Shown here: positions 10,016 through 37,515 of the stretch, in pieces | Layout of the letters: each line of letters begins with the position of its first letter | How positions within the stretch are numbered: the stretch's first letter is position 1 | Assembly: GCA_030605695.1 (NCBI GenBank) | Contig: JAUWHX010000092.1 | Coordinates: 996 to 64,995, forward strand | Length of the DNA stretch: 64,000 bases | Source of the DNA: a bacterium | Lineage (GTDB): Bacteria > Hydrothermota > UBA3073 > JACQXS01 | Direction of reading: 5' to 3' | Program-made: the position numbers and the translations under genes | Notes under the pieces: model-generated | Told to the model about the DNA's origin: nothing | Seen by the model: only the letters and a program-made list of their open reading frames with translations | Database searches by the model: none

Positions 10016-12457
10016 TTAAAAAGTATCAAGTTCACGCCTTGGTGAACTTGTTTCTCTGTTTCTTGTTGCTTTTTTATCCACCTTGACACAGTAATTTCTC
10101 CTTGTGTTCTCAATAATATAGTCCCGGCAAAATGTCTTTTTCCTCTTGGATGGTGGGTAAGTCTTAAAGTTCACGATGTCATTGCCAATCCTTGCGTAAA
10201 CCTCTCCTTTTCCCAGAGTGAGTAAATCATTCACGTCTATCTTTCCCCTAAATTCGTTTACCATCCTTTTGGCATCATCAAGCTCAAGTCCGAAACATAT
10301 GACCGTACCCACATTACCCAATGCCTGCCGAACTTCTGGATTTGCCTGTCCTCTTATTTGATATGCTAATGTTGCTGATGCCTTGTACTTCCTGGCTTCC
10401 GTGAGGAATGCTTGTACATCGCAATGAAATCTATGAAATTCATCGCCGTAAATATACACTGGTTTCCTTTTATCCTCGGGAGTATCAGCTCTGGAGAGAA
10501 CTGCCTTATGAATGTGAGAGAAAAGGAAGGAGCCCAAAATATTTGCAGTCGCATACCCTAAAACGCCTGACGGTATCGATATAAGTAGTATCTTGTTGGA
10601 GTCAATTATTTCTCTTATGCTTATTTTGTTTTCCACCTGGGAAAATATGCGATGAGTCTTGTCATTTAAGAAAAATTGACCGAGCTTGTTTAACACTGGG
10701 TCCAGCATCTCGGGAGTGTATTTCTTGAAATCTTCTTCCCAGAATCGCCTGGCTGAAGGATTAGAAAGATAAGGAAGCATCTTTGCTCTGAATTGCTCTC
10801 CTTCAGGGCTTTTTGATAGTAAGATTTGAGAATCCAAAAGTGTAGTTCTTGGAGTTGCCAGCAGGGCATAGAACATCTGTCTAATGATGTTCTCCATACG
10901 GGCCCCCCATGAAGGCAGAATACTCTTCATCAAGGCAACAAAGTCTTCAGCGATCCGTGATATATCTTCGTAGCCCTCTATATCCACAGGATTAAAACAT
11001 GGAGTCCATTCTAAGTCAGCTGGATTAAAAAAGATGACATCATCCTTTCTACTTTCCGGTATGCTGTCAAGCACATCATCTGTCAGGTCCCCATGAGGCT
11101 CCATAAGGAGAATAGCTCCTTTACCTCTTCTCGCATCATCTAACAACATGTTACCCATTAATCCACTTTTGCCAGTATCTGTCTTCCCTAGCAAATATGC
11201 ATGGCTATACCTCATTTCGTCAGGAAGCTTGACTTTAGTTATTGTTATACGCTCGTTGTAACCGAGAGTTACCCCTGATACAGCAAGTTTCTCTGGCACA
11301 GCGAATCCTTCAATTATGTCAAGGTTATGCGGTCTGTCTTCGTCGTGGCTACCAGATGGAAGGTGGCACAGTCCACTTAACTCGGCACTGTTTAGTAAAA
11401 ATCCAGGTCTGTGTGTAGTGCGAGATATAAACATATTCAATATTTTCTGCTTATCTTTCAGTACCTTAAGATAGTCTCGTGATGTGAGAAAACTGAACCC
11501 TCGCCCACCATGTAAGAAATTGCTCATAAAAGAATTCAGACTCTTCACGGTCTCGTGCTGATACTTTTTTCCACAAAAAACACCTATCCTGACAACGGCG
11601 GCAAAAAATGGTTTATCTCGATGAGCTTTAGCTGTCTCACGCTTGCTTAATTCAGGGACATACAGTGAGGGAGTCTGGGAGAACCAGGAAGTGCGTGGGT
11701 TTGCATACTCTGATTGAGTGGTGGTCTTGAACTCGATATCTGTGAGAATTTCTACATTTCTGTGCCAGTTGTTTTGGGGAGAGGTAGGTTTAAAGATGAC
11801 TTGGTAGAAGGCAAACTCGTCTGGGTTGAGCTCATTTATAGCATGTAGAAGTATCTTTAATGGCGAATTACCCAATTCAGCGGGCTCTGTGAAATTCTTG
11901 CAGTATAAACTGTTCATAGGACAGTAATCCATAAATTCAAAAGCATGGGTTTTCGTACCGTTGAGTTTCTTTAATGTAAGATACTTGCTTAGCAAATCAT
12001 TATCTTGTTGCTCTGCGTGTGCTTCGGGATAATTCACCTTAAGAGCGTTCCTCACAGTAGGGAGATCCAGTTTGTCCAGAATGACCAGTTGAAGTTCAAT
12101 CTTTTGGCAATTACCAATGAGTTCAAATGAAATAACAGAAGAAGGAACTACCACTTTCAAAAAATTCTCCGCATCTTTCCAATCCAATTTGTCGTGTTTT
12201 GAAGGCCATACCTTAAGATATATAGGTTTGTTAGGCTTTACATCAAGAGGGACATACGATTCTCGTATCTCGCCATCCTCCTGATTTCTCATTGCAACTC
12301 TTGGGTCAAAAATACTGAACCGAGGTTCAATGTCCACGAGTACTCGGTGTATTGTGGGGTCACACCCTTTTTTGCCTTCCTGCAAGAAGAGATGCTGGAA
12401 GAGGTTGGTAATTGTTTGTGTTACTTGTCCAAGTATTTCTGGATTAGGTCTTGGCAT
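10016..12457 (-). CDS. TraD/VirD4/FtsK-like DNA-translocating ATPase (type IV coupling-protein-like)
   Basis: Walker A LGKTDTGKSGLM, Walker B VYIYGDEFHRF, then ...TEARKYKASATLAYQ. About 400 aa of the N-terminus are uncharacterised. Confidence 0.7.
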   Translation of the reverse strand: MPRPNPEILGQVTQTITNLFQHLFLQEGKKGCDPTIHRVLVDIEPRFSIFDPRVAMRNQEDGEIRESYVPLDVKPNKPIYLKVWPSKHDKLDWKDAENFLKVVVPSSVISFELIGNCQKIELQLVILDKLDLPTVRNALKVNYPEAHAEQQDNDLLSKYLTLKKLNGTKTHAFEFMDYCPMNSLYCKNFTEPAELGNSPLKILLHAINELNPDEFAFYQVIFKPTSPQNNWHRNVEILTDIEFKTTTQSEYANPRTSWFSQTPSLYVPELSKRETAKAHRDKPFFAAVVRIGVFCGKKYQHETVKSLNSFMSNFLHGGRGFSFLTSRDYLKVLKDKQKILNMFISRTTHRPGFLLNSAELSGLCHLPSGSHDEDRPHNLDIIEGFAVPEKLAVSGVTLGYNERITITKVKLPDEMRYSHAYLLGKTDTGKSGLMGNMLLDDARRGKGAILLMEPHGDLTDDVLDSIPESRKDDVIFFNPADLEWTPCFNPVDIEGYEDISRIAEDFVALMKSILPSWGARMENIIRQMFYALLATPRTTLLDSQILLSKSPEGEQFRAKMLPYLSNPSARRFWEEDFKKYTPEMLDPVLNKLGQFFLNDKTHRIFSQVENKISIREIIDSNKILLISIPSGVLGYATANILGSFLFSHIHKAVLSRADTPEDKRKPVYIYGDEFHRFHCDVQAFLTEARKYKASATLAYQIRGQANPEVRQALGNVGTVICFGLELDDAKRMVNEFRGKIDVNDLLTLGKGEVYARIGNDIVNFKTYPPSKRKKTFCRDYIIENTRRNYCVKVDKKATRNRETSSPRRELDTF

Positions 12458-13370
12458 AGTTATCTCCTCTATGTTTTTGGGTTAGCTGAGTAAAACCGTA
12501 TAATCCCTTTTTCTGCGAGGATACTGGTTCCCATATGTCATTGAGGATTGTTTCTGGCGTGATGCGGTCAAAAGTTGTAAGCCATACAAAGTTAGCTTGG
12601 GCTTCAATGCAGGCGTGCTTAATATTCCTTAATCTCTGTTGCCCTGTGGTCACAAACAGCAATCTGAACCCTTTGAACTTTTCGTAATTGAAAATCTTGT
12701 TGTAAGCTGAATATCCTCCTGTGTCGAAATAGCGACAGTACGCTCTAACCTTTTTGGTAATATCATTCTGGATTTGAGACGATGCTTTTATGCTCTCGGT
12801 TGACCTATCAGCCTCCAGAAAGAGTAAGAGTCGCTTGCGAGCACGGTTTTCAAGGTAAAAAGTAGCATCGGGTATTATTTGCTTGCTAACTTTGCTTACC
12901 TCCTGACTCGTGGCAAAATAACAGGAAAGCTCTGACGAGTGTTCACACGCAATTGTGAGATTGATTTTAAAATCGCTTATATGAAGAAAATGCTCAAAGT
13001 GCTGACCATCTCTTATACTTCTATATTTTGGCTTCACGATTTGCACTTTCTTGCCCATAATCGAGGACACCACAGCACTCCCTTCCCTGTTGAGGCAATA
13101 CACATATTCTCCTTTGCCAAAGACGGATGCTATACTTCTCTCAGAACGCTGTAAGTAGCCATTATCAAATAGAATTTTTAGCCTTCGGCATGCTTTCTTT
13201 TGACTTGAAAAATGAAGACGCTGTACCTGCGAGGTAGTCAGGTATTTATAGAACTCAAGGTCAACAAGAATTTTTATATCACGGTTTGTGAGTCTCATTA
13301 AACCTCCAGGGGAGTAGCCCTGTGAGATTCTAACTTGCTTCCACAGGGCTTTGCTCCCTTTTGCCATCAT
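12444..13370 (-). CDS. Replication-relaxation (Replic_Relax) family protein
   Basis: LTNRDIKILVDLEFYKYLTTSQVQRLHFSS...ACRRLKILFDNGYLQR matches the Replic_Relax N-terminal wHTH pattern. 14-nt overlap with the ATPase gene. Confidence 0.65.
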   Translation of the reverse strand: MMAKGSKALWKQVRISQGYSPGGLMRLTNRDIKILVDLEFYKYLTTSQVQRLHFSSQKKACRRLKILFDNGYLQRSERSIASVFGKGEYVYCLNREGSAVVSSIMGKKVQIVKPKYRSIRDGQHFEHFLHISDFKINLTIACEHSSELSCYFATSQEVSKVSKQIIPDATFYLENRARKRLLLFLEADRSTESIKASSQIQNDITKKVRAYCRYFDTGGYSAYNKIFNYEKFKGFRLLFVTTGQQRLRNIKHACIEAQANFVWLTTFDRITPETILNDIWEPVSSQKKGLYGFTQLTQKHRGDNYAKT

Positions 13371-15967: not shown

Positions 15968-16048
15968 GGTTAGACCTTCTGTTTAAATGTCATTTGAGGA
16001 TTTGACCCTAAATTCTCTAAATTCTACTTTTTGTCTACAAGAATCGTC

Positions 16049-16378
16049 TCAGATTAACGTAAGAAGTCCATCAATTATAAGTTTTTTGATTCCTTCTGCG
16101 AGATTCTGAGCCCTTGCTTTGGCAGCTACTTTCATCTTGAGAGATTCCATTTCTGTTAGGGACTTCATATCAAAAACATACCCTTCAAATTGTTTTTTGG
16201 TTATCAACCCATTGGTAAGTTGGTCCAAATAACGTTCCAATTTTTCTCCCTGCTCTTTGATGAAACTTTCCGCATCATCTTTCGCAGTGTTCACCAAGCC
16301 CTTAATCTCATCCTTAATAAGCTCACCTGCACCATCTTTTAGGTTGCCAATGAACCCATTATACCACTTTAAACTCAT
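16049..16378 (-). CDS. Hypothetical helical protein with a hydrophobic C-terminus
   Basis: 109-aa ORF with a 12-nt gap from the upstream lipoprotein gene. Ends in LIIDGLLTLI. Confidence 0.4.
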   Translation of the reverse strand: MSLKWYNGFIGNLKDGAGELIKDEIKGLVNTAKDDAESFIKEQGEKLERYLDQLTNGLITKKQFEGYVFDMKSLTEMESLKMKVAAKARAQNLAEGIKKLIIDGLLTLI

Positions 16379-16390
16379 AGCTTTACCTCC

Positions 16391-16858
16391 CTATTCATTT
16401 TTGTTCTTTAATCTCTCAGTTTCTATCGCTATATCGAAAGCTTTTGCGATGTTTTCCTTCTGATTGTTCAGGTGTATTTCATTCCATTTTCCGTTTTCCA
16501 GTCGGTCATTAATATGTCTCTCAAACATTTCTTGGATTATCTTTATTTGCCTTGTGGTTTCAATATTCTTTTCTCCTTTTCCAACTTCGTATTCATATAT
16601 CTGGGCAAGCCTCAGGCGACTGATCGCAATCTTATCGGTATTGATGAAATCGCCAACAAAAGTATCATATAAAGTAATTACTTCAGGCTTTAAGTCTGTG
16701 AGGTTCTTATATGTTACAGGATCGTAATATGCTGGAAATCTCAATAAAGAAGTACATCCAGACAAATACAGCAAGAGAAATAGTAAGTTTGCTGCAAGTT
16801 TATTAATCAAATGGTATCTTATTCTACAATCTTTAATTAAATAAGCCTTCATATTCAT
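16391..16858 (-). CDS. Putative lipoprotein
   Basis: Lipobox LLLYLSGC. Start moved to the ATG after the GGAG (MNMKAYL...). Confidence 0.45.
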   Translation of the reverse strand: MNMKAYLIKDCRIRYHLINKLAANLLFLLLYLSGCTSLLRFPAYYDPVTYKNLTDLKPEVITLYDTFVGDFINTDKIAISRLRLAQIYEYEVGKGEKNIETTRQIKIIQEMFERHINDRLENGKWNEIHLNNQKENIAKAFDIAIETERLKNKNE

Positions 16859-16991
16859 TCTCCTTTTTATCTTTGCCATTTTGCCTCCTTGTAATAAAAA
16901 GAACTATTTCTTTCTCTTTCGCAATATATTTCCCAACTTTTCCATTGTTTTACTGATACATAAACATTCAAAAAGAGTTAACGTTTAATTA

Positions 16992-17390
16992 TTAAACGGA
17001 CTTCACAAGTTCAAAATGAGGTAGATCCATGAATGTTTGATCTTTGACATCAGTATCAGAGTCCCAATCTCCACCCCATCTTATTTTGATATCCATTTTT
17101 ATGGCAATCCCCTTAACAACTCCTGCAAAGTAATAGAATCTCTCTTTGTCATTCCAGTCTATTGGATAAGGAGCAACATCTACTGCCTCAGATGGTTTCT
17201 TGTTATGCTTGCTTTTCGGGAACTTTAATTTCGACCGACCTTCATGATAGGCATTATCCTGATCTTCTTTACTTCTGTGGCCCTGAAGCACCGAACAGTC
17301 AAAGCAATTAACAACCTCTTGAAAAAGACGTCGCAATTCCGGATGGCAAGTCTCCAACCTACTCTTTGATTTTTTCCCAAATTTAGGCAT
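16992..17390 (-). CDS. Peptidase M15 (L-alanyl-D-glutamate / D-Ala-D-Ala peptidase, endolysin-type)
   Basis: GHRSKEDQ, SEAVDVAP and DLPHFEL give the H-D-H zinc ligand pattern of M15 cell-wall peptidases. AGGAGG RBS. Confidence 0.8.
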   Translation of the reverse strand: MPKFGKKSKSRLETCHPELRRLFQEVVNCFDCSVLQGHRSKEDQDNAYHEGRSKLKFPKSKHNKKPSEAVDVAPYPIDWNDKERFYYFAGVVKGIAIKMDIKIRWGGDWDSDTDVKDQTFMDLPHFELVKSV

Positions 17391-17522
17391 GATTCCTCCT
17401 TTTTTCTTTCTTCATAATTCATTTTACGTTCCTATAAACATTTCAACCTATTTATATAAATGATTTTATATTTTTATCAAGTATCGTTTTGCAAGTATCT
17501 ATAATTGCTTATATATCAATCA

Positions 17523-17565
17523 CTTTGATAAATTTATCAAGTTTAAAGAAGCGGTGTTTTGACAT
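17523..17565. repeat. 43-bp direct repeat, copy 1, containing the perfect 16-bp palindrome TTGATAAATTTATCAA (17525-17540)
   Basis: CTTTGATAAATTTATCAAGTTTAAAGAAGCGGTGTTTTGACAT is 40/43 identical to 21281-21323. An extra half-site, TTTATCAAGT, lies at 17473-17482. Confidence 0.85.
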
Positions 17566-17650
17566 AATGTTTTAGCTTTAATAGTAGATATTTTTACAGT
17601 AAAATGTAATTTGAAGACCCGACCCTATTCTGTTTTGATTCACAATATTT

Positions 17651-20077
17651 TTAATTGTTCCAGTCATATTCACGATGTCCGCATTTAGACCTGATTTTTT
17701 TCTCAACATTATCATAGTATCTTTTAGAAATCGGTTTATTACAGTCTTTACAGTAAAATAATTCTTCTAAACTTACTACATCCTGCCAGAATGCTCTACA
17801 ATCTCCAATATTCGTGTCAAAATTACTGTCATGTGAATCTTTATTTACAACAAAAACAGATGAGATTATTTTTTTAATTATTGGCTCAAATATATCCTTG
17901 GAAGGTTGTTTATTAATCTTACTTTTCAATTCAGATAACAATTCGTTGCTCATTCTGTTTTCATTCAACTCGTTCGAGCGATATTTAACATATACATCTA
18001 TCTCTTCGGAAATTTCCTTTAGCAATTCCTCTAAATATTTTCTCATAAGATTTCCGAGTCCAGTTTTGTCATTATCGGCTAACCGTTGTTCTATTGTTCG
18101 TTTCAAGTCAACAAGTGTTTCATTTAAATGTGTGCCTTTAGATTCATTCCAATTAATAACATTAACCATCCAATCCGCTTTCCCCCGGACTATATTTTTC
18201 ATATAATCAAACCAGTTTCGTTCATGCGTTAAGATAAAAACTTGATAATCTGAAAATTTTTCCAGTAATAGGTCACTAAGTCTTTTTCTGTGATTTAAAT
18301 CAAAACTTGATATAATATCGTCAAGAATAAAAAATTGATTCTTTTCATTGAATGCTTTTACAGATGTAAGAAAGAAAGATATCCCCAAACTGTTCAAATG
18401 CGATTCACTCAAATATTTTTGGGGCGGAGAGGCGCTTTTATCAAAGAATTTAGATTCTATTGTTATACCTATTAATTCATCATCTCTTTTTGTCGTCTTT
18501 ATCTCAATATTTTCAACTTTTTCCCCGGGGTGCATATATTGATAATAATCATTTATTTCTTGAGAATAATTGTTGATAAACTCATCCAATTTTTCTTTTT
18601 GTTCTTGCACAAAAGCGTTATAAATTATTTCCATTGAAGTTTTTTGTTTTTCCAAAATCTCTTTTTCTCTTTTTAACCTTTTTATTTCTAAGTATGCTCG
18701 GCGCGAAAGTGTAATTTTATCCTGAACTTCTAAAATTTTGTTTCCTTTTATATTAGAAGCGAGAAACTCATTTCTTTTTTGACAAAACTTTGATATCTCA
18801 TTAAATTTTATCATATCAAACATTATCTCATCTTTCGTTTTCACTCTTTGTCCTTTTAATATATCAATACTAAGTTCTTGACTTACCATTGATATATACT
18901 CTTCAATAAATTTCACGAAATCCCCGATAGTTTTATTTTCCTCTAAATTGAAATATTTATTAGATTGAATGCCAGCAATTATTTTTTTAATTTCATCTAA
19001 TATATTTTGAACAGTTTTTTTCGCATCATCAAACTGGATCTTCTGTTTCTTAATTGGATCCAATGTTGTTAAACGTAATTCAATTTCTTTCATTAATTCT
19101 TCTCTGGATTTTGGCAGAAAACATAGCGGACATTCATCTTTTTCTATGATAGAGCCCTTCAGCACTTTCAGTCCTTCACTCCATAGATAACCTAAAGCAA
19201 TTTTCTTTAAGGTTTCAATATCCCGAATGATTTTTTGAAATAACTGATAATATTCCTCATATACGACTAATAAATTATTGATTTTATTCTGCAAGTCATT
19301 TATTTTACTAATAGCATCATTATAATATACTCTCTGTTCAATTACTGCGGAATCATCGGATTTTTTAAATAAAGAAAGTAAGTTATTTATGTCTTCAATT
19401 TTAGTTAAAACAAAGTCCATGTTTAATGGTTTAATTATTTCGTTTATTTTATTTATATACTGTTCATCCGATATAACTCGTTCATTCAATAACGACATTA
19501 TTTGACCGTCTCTGTTACTTATTTCATCATCATAATTTCTTGATCGTAAACTTCTTTTAATCTCATTTGCCGCTGTTTTTAGAACACCTCTAATACCTGA
19601 AATTTTAGTAAAACCAATAACCTTTGATAATGCATCGAGTTTATTTTTTGGTGTAGATAAAACAAACTCTGTTAAATCACCATACTTTAAAGTAAGATTC
19701 TCATTTTTAGAACTCTCAATATATTCTTTGAATGCCTCAGAATTATTAGAATTTTCAACTTCAGGGTTGGACTTTTTTAAGATTATACTTTTTTGAGAAT
19801 TCAAATTATCATCAGTAAAATTAATCTCCACTGAACATTTTTCTGTATCTGCAATAAAAATATTCCTAAGAGCAGTTAATCCGCCTTTTCTATCAATTTC
19901 TTCATTTACAAGGTGACCAACATAATTTTTATAAAACCATTCTGTTGCATCTGTAATACTGCTTTTCCCGGTTCCATTATCTCCAAAAAGTAAGGCTGAT
20001 TTAGAATTTAACTCCAAGGATAATCCCTCTTTAACTCCTCTAAATCCTTTAATGTATAAAGATTTAATTTTTATCAT
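17651..20077 (-). CDS. Coiled-coil ABC/SMC-like ATPase with a CxxC zinc hook and a PrrC/RloC-like C-terminal region
   Basis: N-terminus IKGFRGV...LLFGDNGTGKSSITDA (Walker A). Long coiled coil with DECPLCFL. YLSESHLNSLG signature, Walker B FFILDDIISSFD, H-loop ILTHE. Then MRKYLEE...NKDSHD and a terminal CKDC...CGH zinc ribbon. Confidence 0.75.
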   Translation of the reverse strand: MIKIKSLYIKGFRGVKEGLSLELNSKSALLFGDNGTGKSSITDATEWFYKNYVGHLVNEEIDRKGGLTALRNIFIADTEKCSVEINFTDDNLNSQKSIILKKSNPEVENSNNSEAFKEYIESSKNENLTLKYGDLTEFVLSTPKNKLDALSKVIGFTKISGIRGVLKTAANEIKRSLRSRNYDDEISNRDGQIMSLLNERVISDEQYINKINEIIKPLNMDFVLTKIEDINNLLSLFKKSDDSAVIEQRVYYNDAISKINDLQNKINNLLVVYEEYYQLFQKIIRDIETLKKIALGYLWSEGLKVLKGSIIEKDECPLCFLPKSREELMKEIELRLTTLDPIKKQKIQFDDAKKTVQNILDEIKKIIAGIQSNKYFNLEENKTIGDFVKFIEEYISMVSQELSIDILKGQRVKTKDEIMFDMIKFNEISKFCQKRNEFLASNIKGNKILEVQDKITLSRRAYLEIKRLKREKEILEKQKTSMEIIYNAFVQEQKEKLDEFINNYSQEINDYYQYMHPGEKVENIEIKTTKRDDELIGITIESKFFDKSASPPQKYLSESHLNSLGISFFLTSVKAFNEKNQFFILDDIISSFDLNHRKRLSDLLLEKFSDYQVFILTHERNWFDYMKNIVRGKADWMVNVINWNESKGTHLNETLVDLKRTIEQRLADNDKTGLGNLMRKYLEELLKEISEEIDVYVKYRSNELNENRMSNELLSELKSKINKQPSKDIFEPIIKKIISSVFVVNKDSHDSNFDTNIGDCRAFWQDVVSLEELFYCKDCNKPISKRYYDNVEKKIRSKCGHREYDWNN

Positions 20078-20254
20078 TTATTTTTCCTCCCTTAAAGAAG
20101 TAAGTTTATTTGATAGATTGGTATTGGTCAGTTTACCTTCCTCATACATCTTTTTGATTTCAGATGCCAGCTTCTTATCCACATCTGGAATATTCAATAT
20201 ACCATTGAAAAAATCATCCAATATTTCTTTTCCGTTTTTTATTGGTTTATCCAT
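20078..20254 (-). CDS. Small helical protein (58 aa) between the nuclease and the ATPase
   Basis: Start set to the ATG at 20254 (MDKPIKNGKE), preceded by GGAGG. It overlaps the upstream gene by 8 nt, and its stop abuts the ATPase start (TAAATG). Confidence 0.5.
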   Translation of the reverse strand: MDKPIKNGKEILDDFFNGILNIPDVDKKLASEIKKMYEEGKLTNTNLSNKLTSLREEK

Positions 20255-20720
20255 TGTCAAGACCTCCTTTCTCAAAATATTTCCAGTCAATTACAAGATT
20301 TAAATTTAAATCCTTTTTTAATACTTCAAATCCAGTTTTATTGTTACAAATAGGATAAATGCCATATTCCTTAACAAAACCTAAAATAAAATAACTTTCT
20401 AGGTCCTCTATTTTAAAGTTCCATATCTGTTTTAACATTTCAAAATTAAGATATGTGAAATAAAGTCCTTCAACTTTACGATAATTTAAAAGTCCTTCAT
20501 TTCCTGATGACCCATCATAATGGACTAACAGTCGTTTGGCAATACTGTTTGTTCTTTTTTCACTCATACCAATATAAATCAACCTTGATTTTTTGAATGG
20601 ATAAGGAATTTCAGTTTTCTTCAAAAAGATAAAATATAATCCACATATACCTATCAATTGTTTTATATTTTCAAGTTCAAATTCCTTATACTTGTCAAAA
20701 TAAATTTTGTATTGATTCAT
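20247..20720 (-). CDS. GIY-YIG-like nuclease domain protein
   Basis: CGLYFIFL...SRLIYIGMSEKRTNSIAKRLLVHYDG...ESYFILGFVKEYGIYPICNNKTG follows the GIY...YIG...R...H...E...N pattern. Confidence 0.55.
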   Translation of the reverse strand: MNQYKIYFDKYKEFELENIKQLIGICGLYFIFLKKTEIPYPFKKSRLIYIGMSEKRTNSIAKRLLVHYDGSSGNEGLLNYRKVEGLYFTYLNFEMLKQIWNFKIEDLESYFILGFVKEYGIYPICNNKTGFEVLKKDLNLNLVIDWKYFEKGGLDNG

Positions 20721-20731
20721 ATTTTACTGTT

Positions 20732-21109
20732 TTATTTATACCAATCTCGTTCTGGTACAATAGCAAATTTACAACTTTTATAATCATAACCGGTTTTTGC
20801 TTTATGTTTATCGGTCAATTCAACTGGATCAAATAACTCACCCGTATCTTTAATTGATAAAAAATTGTTTATGTTAAATGCAATTACTTTCGGGTCTGGA
20901 AATTCGTTTTTATCTTTATGGTCATAGCAATAGGCATATACATTATTCTTATTTCTTTCAAATGTTCTTGGATTTGTTGTACCAATATCAAAGGGTGCTA
21001 TTTTATGTGAAACAATTTCCGCATCTGAAACATGCTGATATGTAATTGATAATATTTTCTTTTTAACAATTGCTTCTCTTATAATATTAAATACTTCATT
21101 CCTATCCAT
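20732..21109 (-). CDS. Stand-alone WYL-domain protein with no HTH
   Basis: ILSITYQHVSDAEIVSHKIAPFDIG...NNVYAYCYDH...VIAFNINNFLSIKDTGELF matches the WYL beta-barrel pattern. Start at 21109 (AAGGAGG RBS) or 21124. Confidence 0.6.
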   Translation of the reverse strand: MDRNEVFNIIREAIVKKKILSITYQHVSDAEIVSHKIAPFDIGTTNPRTFERNKNNVYAYCYDHKDKNEFPDPKVIAFNINNFLSIKDTGELFDPVELTDKHKAKTGYDYKSCKFAIVPERDWYK

Positions 21110-21127
21110 ACTATCCTCCTTCATATT

Positions 21128-21241
21128 TTATTTAAATCCTTCAACTATTTTAATATCCTCTTCGGTTAAGCCGTATATGTCATACACCATCTGGTCAATC
21201 CGGCGTTCGTATTCTTTGACTTTGGATTGCCAAGTAAAAAG
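21128..21241 (-). pseudogene. Orphan 3' fragment (37 codons) of an RM/BREX-type methyltransferase-like gene
   Basis: Own translation: ...WQSKVKEYERRIDQMVYDIYGLTEEDIKIVEGFK*. The ...VY.LYGLTEEEI..IE tail is typical of type IIG/type I/PglX-like enzymes. A stop lies just upstream and the gene body is absent. Confidence 0.5.
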
Positions 21242-21280
21242 TCATTTGAAGACCTGACCATCCTCTTTCGTCATCAACAG

Positions 21281-21323
21281 CTTTGATAAATTTATCAAGT
21301 TTAAAAGAGCAGTGTTTTGACAT
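21281..21323. repeat. 43-bp direct repeat, copy 2, containing the palindrome TTGATAAATTTATCAA (21283-21298)
   Basis: CTTTGATAAATTTATCAAGTTTAAAAGAGCAGTGTTTTGACAT. On the minus strand both copies begin with ATGTCAAAACAC. Confidence 0.85.
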
Positions 21324-21382
21324 TTATTTTATCCCAATATTATCTTTGTTTCTAAGATTTTAAAAATTATACTAAACTGAAT

Positions 21383-22261
21383 TCAACCGGCAAGTGCAAC
21401 ACTCCTTTCTTTCTCCAAGACTTCTAATGGTGTTTGATAATTCAAACACTTCCTCGGCCTATTATTAAGCCAATCTTCAATCTCTAAAATTTCTTCTTCA
21501 CTTACTTCTGCTAAATCCGTCTTTTTGGGAATCCAACGCCTTATTAATCCTATGGTGTTTTCTACCGTCCCCTTCTCCCAACTATGATAAGGGTTACAGA
21601 AATACGACTTGATGTCAAGCACTTTGTTGACTTCTTCATGTTCAGTGTTCTCTGACCCGTTGTCATATGTAATGGTAAGAACAGGATATTTAATCAGTGA
21701 TCCTAAAATCGCTAATTTTGTATTCTCTGCTGTCTTTCGCTGTAGTTTCTTAAGAAGTGTTACTCTGCTTTTTCTATCTGCTAAAACATTCAATGCCACT
21801 TTGCTCTGTCTTGAAACCATTGAATCGCTTTCCCAATCACCAATTCGTTCTCTTTTCTCTGTAATATCAGGACGCTCTGAGATTGAAACCCTGTTCGGAA
21901 TATGTGGTCTTTGATGTTTCCTGCTATGACCTTTTTCCATACGCTTTCTATGTCTCCTCACCAGACAAGAAATAAGCTCTTTCCTTGCTTCATAAATATA
22001 TTGATAAATTGCTTCATGGCTTATTGACTCTCCCGGCTTATCAATAGATAACCTGCCTGCTATTATCTCGGGAGACCATCCTTTCCTCAGTTTACTTTCC
22101 ACATACTCTCTGATTTCCTTATTTTTCAGTTTCTCCCGTTTATGTGTAGCTGCCCAACGATTTTTGGCTCGTTCTTGAGCTTTGTGGCTTAAGTAGTACC
22201 CTTTATGGATAGGCGGAGCATTCCTATTTAGCTCTCTGGAAATAGTGGATTTATGTCTAAT
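21383..22261 (-). mobile_element. IS30-family transposase remnant, 5'-truncated
   Basis: The frame is open from 22261: (I)RHKSTISRELNRNAPP...KLRKGWSPEIIAGRL...DWESDSM...YFCNPYHSWEKGTVEN (DDE). About 35 N-terminal HTH residues and the left IR are missing. A TAA stop sits at 22262-22264. Confidence 0.8.
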
Positions 22262-22271
22262 TTATTTCAAC

Positions 22272-23366
22272 TTAAAAATATGTAAAAAACTTTTGTGGGC
22301 TTGCTTGATTAGTTAGCAAGGGTTCAATCTTTTTATGTTTTGTCGAGATCTGTCTTATCAATTCAATATTATATTCCAAAGGGGTTTTAGGATTTTTGTA
22401 AATTACGATTATGTCTCCTGGATTACCGCTTCGTTTAACAGCTTCACATTGTAAGCGAAACTCTTTTTTCTTATCATAATAGTAAATGCGGATATGTTGG
22501 TCTTTAAATATCTTACTATCAATTCTAATATTAGCTATTGCGTAAAGTTGTGGGTAACCAGAACCTGAATTAGTGTATAATACTGGCCAGTTCCAAAAAC
22601 TTGGCATTGACTTCAAGGCTGCAAGCGGAATAAGTATCACCGGGTCTTGACTCCTATCGCTCACATCAAAGCCAGAAAGTGTCATTGCAAAATTACCTTT
22701 TAATACCGGAACTGTTGTTGCCGCTTGTGTGTTAATTGGAGGTAATATTTTTGCTTTTTTTATAGTCTTGAAGGGTAAATCAGAAATCTTCTCAATTATA
22801 TCCTTAAATGATTTTTGTTTTCTTTCATCTATCACAGAACCATACGTTAGGAGCTTATCTAAAAGAGTCAAATCACATTTTTTTGTGTTTTCATCGTTAA
22901 GTAAGTTATTCCAATAATCTATTACTTGTTTTTTGAAGTTATCAGCATCCCCTGATGTATCTAATGTTATACTAATATTTACTTCGTAATTAAGAAAGAA
23001 ACCTCCTGCGGTAAAGTTTGATGAGCCGATAATTACCTTCTCTATTTCTTTATTACCAAACAAATATACTTTTGGGTGGAAGGTAATGTCAAAATTCTTG
23101 TCATGATGAATAAAAAGATTGTCCTTCGCAAATGTTTTAAGATTTACCAACGCTTGATAAGAAGTGTTGTTTTGGTCAATACCTGCGATGATAGATGTTT
23201 TTCCTCCAGCGTTTGAAAAGTATACCAGATCATTATAAATCCTACTAATACCTGAATTCTTAGCATATGCAACAGCCGCTTTGAAGTCAGAATACTTTTT
23301 ACTCATTAATGTTTTTGCAATTTCTTCTCCAGCAATATTTTCGTGTGTTAAAAGAGTAAGTTTCAT
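22272..23366 (-). CDS. PLD-superfamily (HKD) restriction endonuclease, NgoFVII/BfiI-like
   Basis: Single HKD motif FHPKVYLFGNKEIEKVIIGSSNFT in the N-terminal half. About 170 aa of separate C-terminal domain. 4-nt gap from the upstream methyltransferase. Confidence 0.75.
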   Translation of the reverse strand: MKLTLLTHENIAGEEIAKTLMSKKYSDFKAAVAYAKNSGISRIYNDLVYFSNAGGKTSIIAGIDQNNTSYQALVNLKTFAKDNLFIHHDKNFDITFHPKVYLFGNKEIEKVIIGSSNFTAGGFFLNYEVNISITLDTSGDADNFKKQVIDYWNNLLNDENTKKCDLTLLDKLLTYGSVIDERKQKSFKDIIEKISDLPFKTIKKAKILPPINTQAATTVPVLKGNFAMTLSGFDVSDRSQDPVILIPLAALKSMPSFWNWPVLYTNSGSGYPQLYAIANIRIDSKIFKDQHIRIYYYDKKKEFRLQCEAVKRSGNPGDIIVIYKNPKTPLEYNIELIRQISTKHKKIEPLLTNQASPQKFFTYF

Positions 23367-23370
23367 ACTA

Positions 23371-24942
23371 TTACTTTCTTCTTAATACTAAAATTGATTC
23401 GGCATTTATTGAATTCTTAGAGTGGATTAGATATGATTTCTGCACTGTCATACTTATTTTTTCTACGAATTTGAAGTTATTCTTCTCGGCAATATAGCCA
23501 ATAAAATCATCTGTCGGAATATCGAATTTTTCACTACCTGCAGTTGTTTTATTTTTTCCTACGACAAAAAATGCAAATTTGTTTTTCTTGAGAACCTTTG
23601 AAATCTGACTTATTCCGTAGTGCATATCAAGAAAATATTTGTAAAGCAAAGCAGCAGTGTTCTTTCTGCGAAAACCAACACTTGCATCTTTATTTAGTAG
23701 ATAGATTTTTTTTAAAAGTTGAACTATTTCTATTGGCAACACAGAAGACTCGAAATTTCTCTCTAATTCCTTATCTAATTTCTCCCGTTTTGATTTGGTA
23801 ATTTCTCTGTTGCCGATCAGGCTTTCTTCTAATTCTCTAAAAGTTGACTTGTCGGCAAATCCGAACACAAACAATGAAAGTCGGTCTGTGTCAACATAAG
23901 GTAATGCTGTTGCGTAAGGTGGTGAAGTAATGAGCAAATCGATTGAATTTGCTTTTAGGTTTGTACTTTTAATCAATGTTCTGATATCTCCTAAATAATT
24001 TTGAATATTTGAGGTCAATTTGAATCTGTCAAGCAATTGGAATTTTTCAAGGTTTTCAGTTTGTTCGTTTAGATTATTCTTGAAAACTTCAATTAGATTT
24101 TCAGGAGGTGTATCTCGCCTTCTTCTGATTCTTAATTGTGATGGGTCTTGATATGAATATTCTCGCAGGAGATTACTTAAAATAACTTTAGAAAATAGTT
24201 TATAAGTTTCATTATTGAATAATTTAATAATTTCTTGTATAAAAATAATTTTTTTAAGAGTATTTTCAGGAAACCAATTTTTCAAATAATTAGCGTCTAC
24301 AATTCTATTATAATTATCAATTACTATTTTCTCCCAGCCGGTTTTTTTATTTAGGTTTTCAAAAGCTTTTCTTATATGTTTCAAGTCATTTTGTCTAAGC
24401 AGCAAGCTTTGCACCTTAGCTTTAGCCATAAGATATGCAATCGGATTGATGTCAACACCAACAGCGTTCGCGCCGAACAGAAAACTTTCGACGAGAGTAG
24501 TTCCACTGCCGCAGAATGGATCCAAAACTGTATCACCTTTTTTAATACCTGCATAATTCATAAACGATTTTGCGAGTTGAGGATAAAATCTGCCTTTGTA
24601 TTCGTGAAGTGAATGGGTTAAATAACGGATTTCCCTTGATTTATTTGGCTTTAAGTCTTGAAAGAGACTTGGCTCATAAGTCTTGTAACTTTCCACTACA
24701 GATTGGTCTGTCAGAATGTTTGATTTACCAAATTGAGCGTTTCGATAATGGAATTCACTATAAAAAGTAAGTTTCTTCAACTTTAATTCATCCATTAATT
24801 TGCTTGTAGTAAATTTAATTCCCTCTTTGGTAATAGTTTTGTTTATTACAGACGGGAATTGATTCTCGAACTCTTTAATTGCAAGTTCTTTTTCGTAGTC
24901 TCTAAGTTTATATTTTACAAAATTTACTTGATATTCGAACAT
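23371..24942 (-). CDS. DNA methyltransferase (N6-A or N4-C)
   Basis: AdoMet motif I DPFCGSGTTLVE and catalytic motif IV ITSPPYATALPY. Confidence 0.85.
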   Translation of the reverse strand: MFEYQVNFVKYKLRDYEKELAIKEFENQFPSVINKTITKEGIKFTTSKLMDELKLKKLTFYSEFHYRNAQFGKSNILTDQSVVESYKTYEPSLFQDLKPNKSREIRYLTHSLHEYKGRFYPQLAKSFMNYAGIKKGDTVLDPFCGSGTTLVESFLFGANAVGVDINPIAYLMAKAKVQSLLLRQNDLKHIRKAFENLNKKTGWEKIVIDNYNRIVDANYLKNWFPENTLKKIIFIQEIIKLFNNETYKLFSKVILSNLLREYSYQDPSQLRIRRRRDTPPENLIEVFKNNLNEQTENLEKFQLLDRFKLTSNIQNYLGDIRTLIKSTNLKANSIDLLITSPPYATALPYVDTDRLSLFVFGFADKSTFRELEESLIGNREITKSKREKLDKELERNFESSVLPIEIVQLLKKIYLLNKDASVGFRRKNTAALLYKYFLDMHYGISQISKVLKKNKFAFFVVGKNKTTAGSEKFDIPTDDFIGYIAEKNNFKFVEKISMTVQKSYLIHSKNSINAESILVLRRK

Positions 24943-24948
24943 AGCTTC

Positions 24949-26091
24949 CTACTTGATGTTTTCGAAAACTACAATCTTTTCCGTCTTGATATTTCCAATC
25001 ATAGGATTAAACGACTTTTTTCTAAGATTTAAGTTTCTGGTAAATTCAGTTACGAAATTGAAAGGAGTATTTCTTGCAACTTCTTTCAGAATTTCATCAT
25101 TTTTAATACTTCTACCCTTCAAAATGGAATTGCCAATTACCAAAACAAAATATGAACCAGGCTTTAGAATTTTACGTATATTAAAAAAACATTTTCCCAT
25201 GTCTCGCATAAAATCAAATTCGTCTGGTCCATTTTTCTTTGAGTAATCAGCATGGGCTCCAATCTCACTTTTACGCAGAGAATAAGGATTCATTTCAAGC
25301 CAAAACAGTCTGTATTTGTGGTAAAGATGATAATCGTAGGCATTGGGGTAAGGTGGTGATGTTACAACCAAATCAGCACTGTTATCAGGAAAAATATTTT
25401 CTTCTCTAGTGTCTGCAACTTTAAATTGTGAATCCCCTTTTGTTAAGTCTTGATAACATTCTTGCATTTTGCCACGAAGCTTGGAAAGTTGTTTGGAAAA
25501 TTTTTCAAAAGTATCAAAATGGCTTATGTTCTTTTGAACCCTTACATATCTCGTGTCACTATCTTGGTTAGAAACGTTTACTATTATTCCTGAAAGAGCA
25601 ACAAGACAAAAGTTTTTTAAATCTTGGTTATCTATATTTTCAATTTCATTTTTAAGAAAAAAAAGTTCAGCAATGACGAAATCTTTAAACCATAAGTCTA
25701 TGTTAGGTATATCTGGCTTTTTAAAATCTTTTATTTTGCCAGTATAGTATTCGTCAATTTTCTTGTAAACTCTGTTCAACAATGTATCAAGTTTCTTAAA
25801 TTGAACTGGATTTACCGGTGTAGTTTTTGCTTTAGAAATGAGAACGGCTAATTCGTTGACATCATTACCAATTGCATTTCTACCGAGAATATTTGCTTCA
25901 ACTGCTGTAGTGCCACTTCCAAGAAAAGGGTCATAAATGGTATCTCCTATATCTGAAAACTGCTCGATAAATTGTTTTGGGATTTGTGGAATAAATTTAG
26001 CTGGATAGGGATGCATATGATTTGTTGCAGTGTTCGTTTCTGCTTTAACAAAGTCCCAATCAATTTTTTCCAATATAGCTAATTCTGTCAT
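24949..26091 (-). CDS. DNA methyltransferase (N6-A or N4-C)
   Basis: DPFLGSGTTAVEA and VTSPPYPNAYDY. 6-nt gap to the next methyltransferase. Confidence 0.85.
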   Translation of the reverse strand: MTELAILEKIDWDFVKAETNTATNHMHPYPAKFIPQIPKQFIEQFSDIGDTIYDPFLGSGTTAVEANILGRNAIGNDVNELAVLISKAKTTPVNPVQFKKLDTLLNRVYKKIDEYYTGKIKDFKKPDIPNIDLWFKDFVIAELFFLKNEIENIDNQDLKNFCLVALSGIIVNVSNQDSDTRYVRVQKNISHFDTFEKFSKQLSKLRGKMQECYQDLTKGDSQFKVADTREENIFPDNSADLVVTSPPYPNAYDYHLYHKYRLFWLEMNPYSLRKSEIGAHADYSKKNGPDEFDFMRDMGKCFFNIRKILKPGSYFVLVIGNSILKGRSIKNDEILKEVARNTPFNFVTEFTRNLNLRKKSFNPMIGNIKTEKIVVFENIK

Positions 26092-26461: not shown

Positions 26462-27097
26462 TTACTCGTCTGCTAAATTCGGTATTGAGGTAATCACGAT
26501 TCCCTGAATTTGAAAATCCGTTGTCAAAACAATAGGCTTATGCTGTTCGTTTGTAGACCTGGGTTTTAATACAATTGCCTTGTCCGAAGAATGGAATTCT
26601 TTTATAGTCGCTTCATTATCAATTAAAGCAATAACGATATCTCCATTGATAGCTGTAGGTTGCTGACGCACTAAAACTAAATCCCTGTCATTTATACCTT
26701 TTTCATTCATAGAATCACCTTTAGCTCTCAACAAGAAATACCTGGATGATGGACGAGCCAATTTTGTAGACACCGGAATCATCGCCTCAATGTTTTCTTC
26801 AGCGAATATCGGCGTTCCACAAGCAACTGTACCTACTAACGGCACATCAACTGTTTGAGCCTGACCCCTATCCTCCTCTAATCCTTTCATAAATTGAAGT
26901 TTGTTGTCTGATTTGCGACGACGCAAAACGCCTTTTTTTATTAAACTATCAATAATCAAGGAGATAGAGCGTGGCGAGCGATACCTCATAGATACCATAA
27001 GCTCACGAACGGAAGGAAATTTCTCTTTGTTCACTATTGAATTTCTAATATACCGGATTGCCTCCAATTCTTTGCTTGTAAAGTCTTTATCGTTCAT
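26462..27097 (-). CDS. LexA/CI-like S24-peptidase repressor
   Basis: LexA-type wHTH (FPSVRELMVSMRYRSPRSISLIIDSL), cleavage region GTVACGTPIFAEE, Ser/Lys dyad (KGDSM, ATIKEF). Start moved to ATG 27097 on promoter evidence. Confidence 0.8.
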   Translation of the reverse strand: MNDKDFTSKELEAIRYIRNSIVNKEKFPSVRELMVSMRYRSPRSISLIIDSLIKKGVLRRRKSDNKLQFMKGLEEDRGQAQTVDVPLVGTVACGTPIFAEENIEAMIPVSTKLARPSSRYFLLRAKGDSMNEKGINDRDLVLVRQQPTAINGDIVIALIDNEATIKEFHSSDKAIVLKPRSTNEQHKPIVLTTDFQIQGIVITSIPNLADE

Positions 27098-27104
27098 TAT
27101 ACAA

Positions 27105-27132
27105 ATAATACACCATTTATATAGCTTGTCAA
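27105..27132 (-). promoter_or_regulatory. Sigma70-type promoter placing the TSS at or near the repressor ATG (leaderless mRNA)
   Basis: The minus strand reads TTGACA-16 nt-TATTAT-TTGTATA-ATG. No RBS is possible in the 7 nt before the ATG. Confidence 0.55.
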
Positions 27133-27287
27133 GTATTTTTTTGTATTTTTGAAATTTTTTCTTACCCTTTCTCAACTCTGGAGTAGAAAAATTTAGATAT
27201 ACTGAATAGATAAAGGAGGCAAGAAATTGCAGGCAAAAAATACAAAGTTTTAAATATCTTTAATGATATCCCTTATGATATCACAAA

Positions 27288-37499: not shown

Positions 37500-37515
37500 C
37501 ACGCCAAGATATAGT

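Follow-up and report, generated by a model that had tools for sequence, protein, structure and literature searches.

Does a tightly packed group of genes on a contig from a Hydrothermota bacterium (contig JAUWHX010000092.1 of assembly GCA_030605695.1) represent an immune system, and which of its genes form the working unit? The genes lie in a stretch of 64,000 nucleotides (nt) of this contig (positions 996 to 64,995), hereafter called the window, where a minus-strand operon encodes, from 5' to 3', a WYL-like protein, a GIY-YIG-like protein, a protein of 58 amino acids (aa) and an 808-aa zinc-hook ATPase of the ATP-binding cassette (ABC) type. An earlier, sequence-only reading had treated all four genes as one system and had likened their layout to the ABC-three-component (ABC-3C) idea and to RloC. 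Our comparison of related loci reduces the conserved unit to the last three genes. This triad is probably a widespread anti-phage module, unnamed in the libraries and literature searched, which combines features of Lamassu and RloC. The four genes of the window are arranged as follows.

20732..21109, minus strand: stand-alone WYL-like protein of 125 aa (130 aa from the alternative ATG at 21124), occupying an optional accessory slot.
20247..20720, minus strand: GIY-YIG-like protein of 157 aa, the predicted nuclease partner.
20078..20254, minus strand: small protein of 58 aa in the 'middle component' position, helical according to the sequence reading only.
17651..20077, minus strand: zinc-hook ABC ATPase of 808 aa with a putative C-terminal HEPN-like domain and a zinc ribbon.

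The tight chaining of these leftward genes is evident at each of the junctions reported previously: a gap of 11 nt separates the WYL-like from the GIY-YIG-like open reading frame (ORF), the 58-aa ORF overlaps the end of the GIY-YIG-like ORF by 8 nt (ATGGATAA), and the sequence TAAATG joins it to the ATPase ORF. The WYL-like ORF most likely starts at its second ATG (21109; 125 aa), which is located 5 nt after AAGGAGGA.

A scan of one genome per species yielded 77 ATPase loci, whose six-frame ORFs were searched with the window proteins and with family hidden Markov models (HMMs). Upstream DNA could be assessed in 68 of these loci, and in 57 of them the genes for the GIY-YIG-like and the small protein lie next to the ATPase gene. 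The gene order of the window is retained in 45 loci and the GIY-YIG-like gene is divergently oriented in 7, with the rest being cut by contig ends or containing a frameshifted ATPase gene. Nine distant relatives (23-29% identity) have neither partner at E<=1e-5, although several of them show a similar small ORF in its place. The association of the small protein with the ATPase reaches deepest, since each assessable family locus with more than ~27% ATPase identity has a homologue of it immediately before the ATPase gene, including two loci (L019 and L029) that contain the small gene and the ATPase gene only. The latter suggest that the ATPase can act without its GIY-YIG-like partner. By contrast, the window WYL protein found no match in the 77 loci, and WYL-like genes are missing from most triad loci, with other WYL-like subfamilies occurring in only a few further ones. 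The predicted co-occurrence thus holds for the GIY-YIG-like, small and ATPase families, whereas the WYL family does not share it and a four-gene system has to be abandoned in favour of a three-gene core.

The triad is found in Bacteroidota, Cloacimonadota, Nitrospirota-type lineages, Alphaproteobacteria and archaea, including methanogens. In the Alphaproteobacteria and their relatives, the GIY-YIG-like gene is transcribed divergently (L048, L055, L057, L058, L060, L062, L063 and the plasmid loci L089 and L090). The two plasmids belong to Aliiroseovarius (L089) and Brucella anthropi (L090), and RefSeq lists the products of their triads as 'AAA family ATPase', 'hypothetical protein' and 'GIY-YIG nuclease family protein'. 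The Aliiroseovarius module adjoins Mu-transposase, TniB and TniQ genes and is possibly transposon cargo. Compared with the window, the GIY-YIG-like protein is the best conserved component (median identity 63%), followed by the small protein (48%) and the ATPase (40%); within the ATPase, the median is 29% for the insert that splits its head and 64% for the C-terminal half of the head. At a Methanoperedens locus (L001, 6679-7014), the GIY-YIG-like gene seems to be truncated or fused to the small gene.

Triads often start 2-9 nt after a restriction-modification gene. Nine of ten immediate upstream neighbours tested have an identifiable domain, and most of them end within ~10 nt of the start of the GIY-YIG-like gene. 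Their assignments comprise type IIG, type III (Res, Mod), C5, type I-S and type ISP-like proteins, a PLD+SNF2 helicase, a true AAA_13 ATPase and a reverse transcriptase. Close relatives of the triad are situated amid OLD-TOPRIM, SMODS/SLATT, dnd-associated and helicase-nuclease genes. In addition, a true RloC-type gene (AAA_13/PDC-S06) is found beside the triad in L008 (4041-6332), L015 (720-2942), L083 (1061-3343) and L092 (1-888), beside the triad or its WYL gene in L010 (9695-11997), and beside the WYL gene in L096 (913-3183), where the contig ends; in L083, L092 and L096, it lies directly upstream of the WYL gene. Since this proximity recurs in several unrelated loci, the triad-type and RloC-type ATPase-HEPN systems tend to travel together. 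The comparison thus establishes the composition, conservation and synteny of the triad as well as its linkage to restriction-modification genes and its mobility.

The window cassette also differs in base composition from its surroundings, with a GC content of 27-29% (18000-21000) compared with 31-35% in the restriction-modification genes on its right and 39-46% in the conjugation/sulfatase-maturase region on its left. The restriction-modification context, the mobility genes and the low GC content argue for a mobile defence gene set rather than a housekeeping repair complex. A role in DNA repair would be in line with the Rad50/SMC-type head and zinc hook of the ATPase, its weak matches to RecF, SMC and Rad50 profiles and the presence of a separately encoded putative nuclease subunit, all of which recall SbcCD and Mre11-Rad50. 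Nevertheless, we consider this explanation highly improbable, given that the triad is sporadically distributed over distant phyla with a near-identical architecture, resides on plasmids, near transposition genes and in restriction-modification loci, has an anomalously low GC content and includes copies with a frameshifted ATPase gene (L019 and L023). Unlike SbcCD and Mre11-Rad50, moreover, it combines a GIY-YIG-like protein, instead of a calcineurin-like phosphoesterase, with an ATPase that has a far shorter insert and a fused putative RNase-type domain, and its context is mobile and defence-related.

Motif conservation in the ATPase was evaluated in an alignment of the window protein and 11 homologues (12 sequences) sharing 29-75% identity. 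Its main elements map to the following positions.

19961..19984, minus strand: Walker A motif GDNGTGKS (residues 32-39), with G32, G35, G37, K38 and S39 invariant in 12 homologues down to 29% identity.
19121..19132, minus strand: CPLC zinc-hook motif (residues 316-319), centrally placed in the long insert, with C316, P317 and C319 invariant.
17753..18115, minus strand: putative HEPN-like helical domain (~residues 655-775), with R679-x3-E683-x3-K687, N702, N705, R708-M709 and S748-H749-D750 invariant.
17681..17752, minus strand: C-terminal zinc ribbon (C776, C779 ... C797, C799), with three short strands in the model.

The four motifs first read from this protein (Walker A, the CPLC hook, R-x3-E...SH and the terminal zinc ribbon) are all present and invariant or nearly so. 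In the head, the invariant positions also include S40, S557-E-S-H560, D586-D587 and H618. In the C-terminal part, they include R679-x3-E683, K687, S748-H749-D750, C779 and C799, with C776 and C797 conserved in at least 90%. The length of the protein is strikingly constant in the family (~808 aa). Pfam SMC_N covers residues 4-631 of the window ATPase (E=1.4e-13), with an insert of ~370 aa splitting the head, and the sequence matches in the Protein Data Bank (PDB) are SMC and Rad50 heads. The best PADLOC model is LmuB, which aligns with the N-terminal part only (PDLC03865, 9.2e-18) and, in relatives of the window protein, extends over positions 4-595 of 611 (PDLC03859, 1e-23 to 1e-27).

The ATPase shares with RloC and PrrC (AAA_13, PDC-S06) a length of ~800 aa, an ABC head split by a long insert that carries a CxxC hook, a predicted C-terminal helical domain with an R-x3-E...(S)H pattern, which is catalytic in RloC and PrrC (PMC2610378), and frequent linkage to restriction-modification genes. 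The ABC motifs that define RloC (Walker A, signature, Walker B/D-loop and switch histidine) are present in the window protein, and its CPLC hook aligns with the CxxC motif of a canonical AAA_13/RloC-type protein. A comparison of the two families with hhalign gave a Prob of 97.8% over the signature, Walker B and H-loop regions, where they specifically share a DDxISSxDxxH Walker B/D-loop and a THx..FF H-loop. Unlike RloC, however, the main-clade ATPase never occurs alone, being always accompanied by the small protein and nearly always by the GIY-YIG-like protein, and the 808-aa protein has an extra zinc ribbon. The AAA_13, PrrC and PDC-S06 profiles score the family weakly. The AAA_13 profile does not detect the window ATPase, and its relatives reach 32-36 bits (cut-off 36 bits) with alignments ending at position 584 of 713. 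Similarly, PDC-S06 yields values of 1e-6 to 1e-8 for the 808-aa family, compared with 1e-56 to 1e-179 for three bona fide AAA_13 proteins, one of them encoded in the window itself, that served as a control and also match PrrC. Judged by its sequence, the ATPase is a protein with RloC-like architecture on an LmuB-like chassis, outside the curated RloC/PrrC family.

The C-terminal region of the ATPase had no match among Pfam models over its last 180 residues. An AlphaFold2 (AF2) model predicts an all-helical domain of six helices followed by a three-stranded ribbon (pLDDT 83.3). Its top Foldseek match is 2q00 (prob 0.93, TMt 0.62), at a non-significant E=0.33, a structure classed as HEPN-T by Anantharaman et al. 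(2013; PMC3710099), and lower-ranked matches include 1o3u (HEPN) and AbiA. In RloC, the triad is defined as Arg-X3-Glu-X36-52-His, often with Ser before the His, and each of its residues is essential according to mutagenesis (PMC2610378). The R-x3-E...S-H residues of the window ATPase appear to match this catalytic triad of the PrrC/RloC anticodon nucleases. The spacing between E683 and H749 is 65 residues, which is longer than in the original definition and close to the 67 residues of the bona fide AAA_13 protein encoded in the window (manual count on the alignment). Furthermore, the local motif GN-x-M-R-K-Y-L-E of the family resembles the PN-I-I-R-R-F-L-E of true AAA_13 proteins, E683-x3-K687 follows the HEPN pattern E-x3-[KR] and is invariant, and the histidine motif reads N745-x-x-S-H749. 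The domain is best described as probably HEPN-like, its best structural match remaining below the significance threshold. In an exhaustive profile search, it was detected solely at the end of ~800-aa proteins (413 clusters at 50% identity). An hhalign comparison with the AAA_13 C-terminus produced a match of 14 columns over R-x3-E only (Prob 4%) and was set aside, as were sequence searches of the PDB with profiles of this domain, the GIY-YIG-like family and the WYL family, which returned no meaningful match.

The assignment of the 157-aa protein rests on several concordant features. At least 95% of 60 family sequences retain G27-L-Y29, Y49-I-G51, R63, H67, E108 and N126, although the spacing between the GIY and YIG elements is ~20 residues rather than the usual ~10 and the first hairpin exceeds its normal length. 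Essentially all recurrent Pfam matches of this family are to GIY-YIG families. GIY_YIG_2 (PF20815) is the top match in 36 of 40 members, in all cases below threshold (14.9 bits for the window protein; cut-off 22.4), and PF01541 matches 8 of 40, with the homologue from L041 scoring best at 21.7 bits (cut-off 22.6) over the whole domain. A homologue with 45% identity carries the RefSeq label 'GIY-YIG nuclease family protein', while NCBIfam contains nothing for any of the cassette partners or for this labelled homologue. An AF2 model of the window protein (pLDDT 85.8) displays the expected beta-beta-alpha-alpha-beta-alpha order, and Eco29kI, T4 EndoII and several phage GIY-YIG proteins are among its top Foldseek matches (E=0.2-4, TM 0.3-0.4). 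It is thus likely that the protein, whose family comprises 1104 clusters at 90% identity, carries a divergent GIY-YIG domain. The earlier assignment is borne out in its direction by the residue pattern, the Pfam trend and the strand order, but it falls short of a curated cut-off or a significant Foldseek match.

The small protein is conserved at K6, G8 and F15 in at least 95% of 60 family sequences and has no PADLOC, Pfam or NCBIfam match. Its position between the putative effector and the ATPase is reminiscent of Lamassu (LmuA/LmuC/LmuB; DdmABC; also described as ABC-3C), where an effector, a small middle protein and an SMC-like ATPase follow each other in the same order. Additional similarities include the LmuB profile as the top match in the defence library, the single CxxC hook, the hhhhDD Walker B motif seen in 'long' Lamassu and the embedded or defence-island context. 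On the other hand, the protein in the effector position comprises only 157 aa and no C-terminal domain of LmuA was detected in it (no LmuA match at E<=1), the protein in the middle position has only 58 aa and no match to LmuC or middle-component profiles, and the ATPase bears its own HEPN-like domain and zinc ribbon. The term GIY-YIG does not occur in the Lamassu survey (bioRxiv 2025.04.02.646746; 0 occurrences). The suggested resemblance to the ABC-3C idea and RloC is supported, in that the order of effector, small protein and ABC ATPase is conserved and that a zinc hook and a PrrC/RloC-like triad occur together in the ATPase. Likewise, PADLOC and NCBIfam give no full-system assignment for the window genes, in line with the earlier remark that no named system combining WYL, GIY-YIG and a zinc-hook ATPase was known. 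In a survey of 132 defence systems, GIY-YIG domains are limited to three single-gene systems, whereas HEPN domains are found in 18 systems, including PrrC and RloC.

Based on these sequence comparisons, we favour, with moderate confidence, the idea that the triad is a horizontally acquired, restriction-linked anti-phage module with a core of effector, small protein and ABC ATPase, in which an ATPase-HEPN protein would cooperate with a GIY-YIG nuclease. In this proposal, the ATPase would dimerise through its hook and its ATP-engaged heads to survey DNA and may sense free ends, aberrant replication intermediates or the failure of a neighbouring restriction enzyme. The 58-aa protein could act as a bridge at the heads, similar to LmuC or the Rad50-binding helices of Mre11, and keep the GIY-YIG-like subunit inactive. 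Upon activation, two HEPN domains would pair and cut tRNA or other RNA, thereby stopping translation, and the GIY-YIG nuclease would be released or positioned to cut DNA, with abortive infection or destruction of the invader as the outcome. The stand-alone WYL-like protein may serve as an optional ligand-binding modulator of activity or expression outside the core.

Several observations weigh against this proposal. The GIY-YIG, WYL and HEPN assignments, which are probable, all lie under curated or significance thresholds. Foldseek returned no significant match for the model of the GIY-YIG-like protein (best E=2 in the PDB and 0.16 among viral models). The C-terminal domain of the ATPase is left uncovered by the Pfam AAA_13 and PADLOC PrrC profiles, and at the position of the arginine in the strict HEPN motif (R-x4-6-H) it has an asparagine, with no conserved arginine. 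Neither of the two small partners matches an LmuA, LmuC or ABC-3C middle-component profile, and the suggested role of the 58-aa protein and the architecture of the complex are drawn by analogy. Moreover, the triad was not found in the phage collection, the module is absent from the defence-system libraries searched, and the combination of a GIY-YIG protein, a small protein and a zinc-hook ATPase is undescribed in the literature searched; the ABC-3C paper of Krishnan et al. (2020), which this search did not cover, may list the family.

The missing arginine would be easily accommodated if the triad were a plain Lamassu-type system, in which the GIY-YIG-like protein is the sole effector. An LmuB-like ATPase and a miniature LmuC would restrain it until DNA ends are sensed, and the HEPN-like domain and ribbon would be a non-catalytic module that binds nucleic acids or has a regulatory function. 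HEPN domains without the motif may indeed be non-catalytic binders (PMC3710099), LmuB is the best PADLOC match and spans nearly its full profile length in relatives, and the gene order as well as the hhhhDD Walker B and single CxxC motifs agree with long Lamassu (bioRxiv 2025.04.02.646746). We nonetheless regard this explanation as unlikely, because R679, E683, K687, S748, H749 and D750 stay unchanged in homologues with as little as 29% identity and appear to correspond to the PrrC/RloC triad established by mutagenesis, neither a C-terminal domain of LmuA nor an LmuC profile was detected, and the small protein and the ATPase are found without the GIY-YIG-like protein in L019 and L029.

The lack of Foldseek confirmation for the GIY-YIG fold would instead suit a paralogue of RloC that is governed by two regulators. 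In that case, the ATPase-HEPN protein would be a self-contained anticodon nuclease, the small protein an antitoxin-like inhibitor and the 157-aa protein, instead of being a nuclease, a conserved adaptor or immunity factor. The ABC head, zinc hook, R-x3-E...S-H residues and length of ~800 aa all fit the description of RloC, and the pair of small protein and ATPase is conserved more deeply than the triad. Moreover, in agreement with paralogous systems, true RloC-type genes lie beside the triad (L008, L015, L083, L092) or the WYL gene (L096). The weak PDC-S06 scores set the family apart from true RloC members, however, and residues of the GIY-YIG catalytic type that are retained in at least 95% of 60 sequences, in a family whose sole recurrent Pfam matches are GIY-YIG families, are hard to explain for a mere adaptor, which renders this scenario quite improbable.

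If the proposed ATPase-HEPN plus GIY-YIG module is real, it would add a common yet unnamed branch to the ABC ATPase immune systems and link RloC, a single-protein tRNase under the control of a Rad50-like region, with Lamassu, whose SMC-like sensor releases a separate nuclease. The triad would then offer a natural test of the notion that one DNA-sensing ATPase can gate RNA-directed and DNA-directed effectors. Its habitual place after restriction-modification genes fits a second line of defence that fires upon restriction failure. The module is widespread and its predicted dual-nuclease design would be unusual, yet it would also be one more member of the large class of ABC ATPase defence systems.

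The borders of the cassette provide hints to how such modules may be exchanged. Directly upstream of the WYL gene, the window contains a remnant of a methyltransferase gene.

21131..21213, minus strand: relic from an Eco57I/TaqI_C-type methyltransferase gene, comprising its 3' end and translating up to the stop codon as ...RRIDQMVYDIYGLTEEDIKIVEGFK or ...KEYERRIDQMVYDIYGLTEEDIKIVEGFK.

Relics of this kind comprise approximately the last 80 nt of the methyltransferase gene (...IDQMVYKLYGLTEEEIKIVE, ending with the stop codon) and separate defence cassettes in several loci, at the following positions.

L079: 4319-4395, 6899-6975 and 10493-10569.
L015: 599-660, 2983-3044 and 6577-6638.
L092: ~950-1010 and 4549-4629.
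L093: 984-1044 and 4890-4990.
L096: 848-934 and 3249-3334.

The window keeps one relic, on the upstream side, which is 77-80% identical at the DNA level to the relics on both sides of the cassette in L079. The latter locus has three copies, namely the end of the resident gene and one copy on each side of a cassette made up of a WYL-like gene and the triad; its flanking relics are 84% identical to each other and 69% identical to the resident gene end. In general, the two relics beside a triad cassette resemble each other (84-85%) more closely than either resembles the resident gene end (61-69%). The layout of L079 is repeated in L015, with an AAA_13 cassette in the first slot, and parts of it are visible in L092, L093 and L096. 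The equal relic spacing of 3594 nt in L079 and L015 was taken as a coincidence because the gene lengths differ. Similar to the genes embedded in Hma, BREX and type I restriction-modification loci (HEC, PDC), the L079 cassette follows the genes for a PLD/SNF2 helicase and an Eco57I-type methylase and is accompanied by an OLD-type cassette. Unlike those genes, the partner proteins of the ATPase lack HEC or PDC model matches, apart from a sole match to PDC-M57B (E=0.019).

The relics look like the marks of an array in which a type IIG/Hma-type methylase gene is followed by stacked defence cassettes and its end serves as a recombination site. An array of this kind agrees with the 'embedding' reported by Payne et al. 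(bioRxiv 2024.01.29.577857), who found ABC ATPase systems to be the commonest embedded class and did not describe methylase-end relics between cassettes. The relics may thus reveal a route by which embedded defence genes are exchanged. It is tempting to go further and speculate that the triad is a distinct, widespread immune system bridging RloC and Lamassu, with one zinc-hook Rad50-like sensor controlling two nucleases at once, a HEPN RNase fused to it and a GIY-YIG DNase that can detach, and that its cassettes move as units and are stacked behind type IIG/Hma methyltransferase genes in an integron-like array, each delimited by a gene-end copy of ~80 nt acting as a recombination site. We put this forward as a tentative possibility.

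The direct repeats that flank the cassette in the window have a different standing. They consist of two pieces, A and B.

17515..17565: direct repeat A, left copy, with the palindrome at 17525-17540.
21273..21323: direct repeat A, right copy, with the palindrome TTGATAAATTTATCAA at 21283-21298; also the start of a 42-aa ORF.
21233..21279: repeat piece B, right copy, contiguous with A.
17598..17650: repeat piece B, left copy, which adjoins the stop codon of the ATPase gene and precedes A as the genes are read; its positions 17598-17644 align with 21233-21279.

The 43-bp repeats described earlier, with 40 of 43 positions identical and a perfect 16-bp palindrome, are indeed present. The copies of A are 88% identical over 51 nt, with the 40/43 core giving a blastn E=5e-11 in a small comparison set, and those of B reach a local alignment score of 51, compared with 25.9 +/- 4.2 (maximum 43) in 500 shuffles. 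A and B are whole on the right flank, whereas the left flank has two partial pieces in permuted order. The palindrome TTGATAAATTTATCAA occurs exactly twice in the window, where nothing else resembles it with two mismatches or fewer. As a family feature, however, palindromic cassette edges did not stand up: among 88 loci, the only carrier is L078, which is the same contig, so that a conserved edge is ruled out, and an exact 25-mer scan of metagenome contigs for the repeat retrieved nothing. Two further candidates were discarded. The repeat is not the start of the RNase_H_2/PDDEXK gene that follows the ATPase gene in relatives, as those proteins start otherwise, and the 42-aa ORF is not the N-terminus of a methyltransferase or other protein in related loci, given that tblastn matched the window copies only. 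The window has the initial 12-24 nt behind the ATPase stop codon in common with L079 and L080. In the region from 16000 to 23000, no Rfam match at E<=0.1 was obtained, and no terminator-like site was found in the flanks. The palindromic repeat may be a rearrangement scar near an insertion sequence remnant, or an operator; most likely, the flanking repeats are scars of cassette shuffling rather than working parts.

The fourth gene of the window opens a view on the position upstream of the triad. The WYL-like protein scores just below the Pfam cut-off (E=0.001, 19.5-19.6 bits; cut-off 21.8 bits) and matches the PADLOC WYL model PDLC01652 (E=1.2e-5). A sub-threshold Pfam WYL match is shared by 8 of 19 family members, no helix-turn-helix (HTH) domain was detected in the protein, and its family profile found no sequence in the PDB. 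The original description as a WYL domain without HTH is thus upheld with respect to the absent HTH and the consistency of the profile matches, but the curated Pfam cut-off is missed. The subfamily is small (21 clusters). In members with at least 72% identity, the triad usually follows directly downstream (the window, L083/84/91, L092 and L093/94); in L096, the WYL gene is cut off by the end of the contig, and L095 departs from the pattern, as the 2.9 kb downstream contain no triad. In L097 (740-2151), a WYL-like gene is located after, not before, the family ATPase gene.

Elsewhere, the slot before the triad holds other small proteins. These include a 104-aa protein related to the window WYL protein in L079 (hhalign Prob 71%), proteins of 96-98 aa in L014 and L015 (the one in L015 with a Pfam WYL match of 1.3e-3), a KTSC protein in L004 (1984-2199; Pfam E=3.9e-27) and, in other loci, a ribbon-helix-helix (RHH) protein, an FRG protein and further proteins without an assigned type. 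A 75-aa family without assigned type occupies the slot in L024, L033 and L040 (Cloacimonadota/Bacteroidota). Since it is filled by such varied small proteins, the fourth gene is a facultative accessory, which is often WYL-like. A KTSC protein is also encoded after an OLD-type ATPase in L079 (6401-6616).

Distant members of the window WYL subfamily follow OLD-TOPRIM and DUF2130 genes or PDDEXK/RNase_H_2 genes, so that the subfamily resembles an add-on that can accompany different defence genes of the nuclease and ATPase kinds. In L087/L088 (2963-6384) and a JGI contig, the WYL-like gene is connected by overlapping stop and start codons to the gene of an OLD-like TOPRIM ATPase, which is preceded by that of a DUF2130 protein, and in L085 (149-2037), from another lineage, it comes after the gene of a PDDEXK/RNase_H_2 protein. 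As putative small beta-barrel proteins of the WYL-like type encoded beside a defence system, the members of this subfamily recall the accessories and regulators BrxR, CapW and Cas13d WYL1, the last of which stimulates a HEPN RNase. Unlike these proteins, however, the window protein has no HTH or RHH domain, its WYL assignment remains below threshold, and its subfamily also accompanies OLD-TOPRIM and PDDEXK/RNase_H_2 genes.

The immediate neighbours of the cassette agree in part with what had been described. Next to the methyltransferase stump lies a remnant of an IS30 element.

21383..22102, minus strand: IS30-type transposase gene, N-terminally truncated (Pfam rve E=2e-6, 28.4 bits; cut-off 32.6 bits).

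Its ORF encodes only 239 aa, whereas a comparable transposase gene in L080 (HTH_38+rve) encodes 328 aa. The stump and the IS30 remnant are thus confirmed, whereas the supposed endolysin-like gene on the other side of the cassette (16992-17390) amounts to a weak Peptidase_M15_4 match (E=0.04). Beyond the IS30 remnant, genes for a PLD/NgoFVII-like nuclease and two N4/N6 DNA methyltransferases form an adjoining restriction-modification unit (22272-26091, minus strand), after which a LexA-like S24 repressor gene is located (26462-27175, minus strand). A few kb downstream of the cassette, genes for a relaxase (Replic_Relax) and a TrwB-type coupling protein (10016-13370, minus strand) suggest a conjugative element or plasmid-like region to which the window belongs. 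On the plus strand (31600-39963), genes for an AddA-like UvrD helicase/PDDEXK protein (1026 aa), an AddB-like PDDEXK protein (940 aa) and a canonical AAA_13/RloC-type ATPase (815 aa; 37516-39963; Pfam E=4.5e-67, PADLOC PDC-S06 1.7e-56) are joined by an overlap of 4 nt and a gap of 16 nt, respectively, and appear to form one operon. Such a coupling of an RloC-type tRNase to a break-processing helicase-nuclease fits the proposed response of RloC to DNA breaks.

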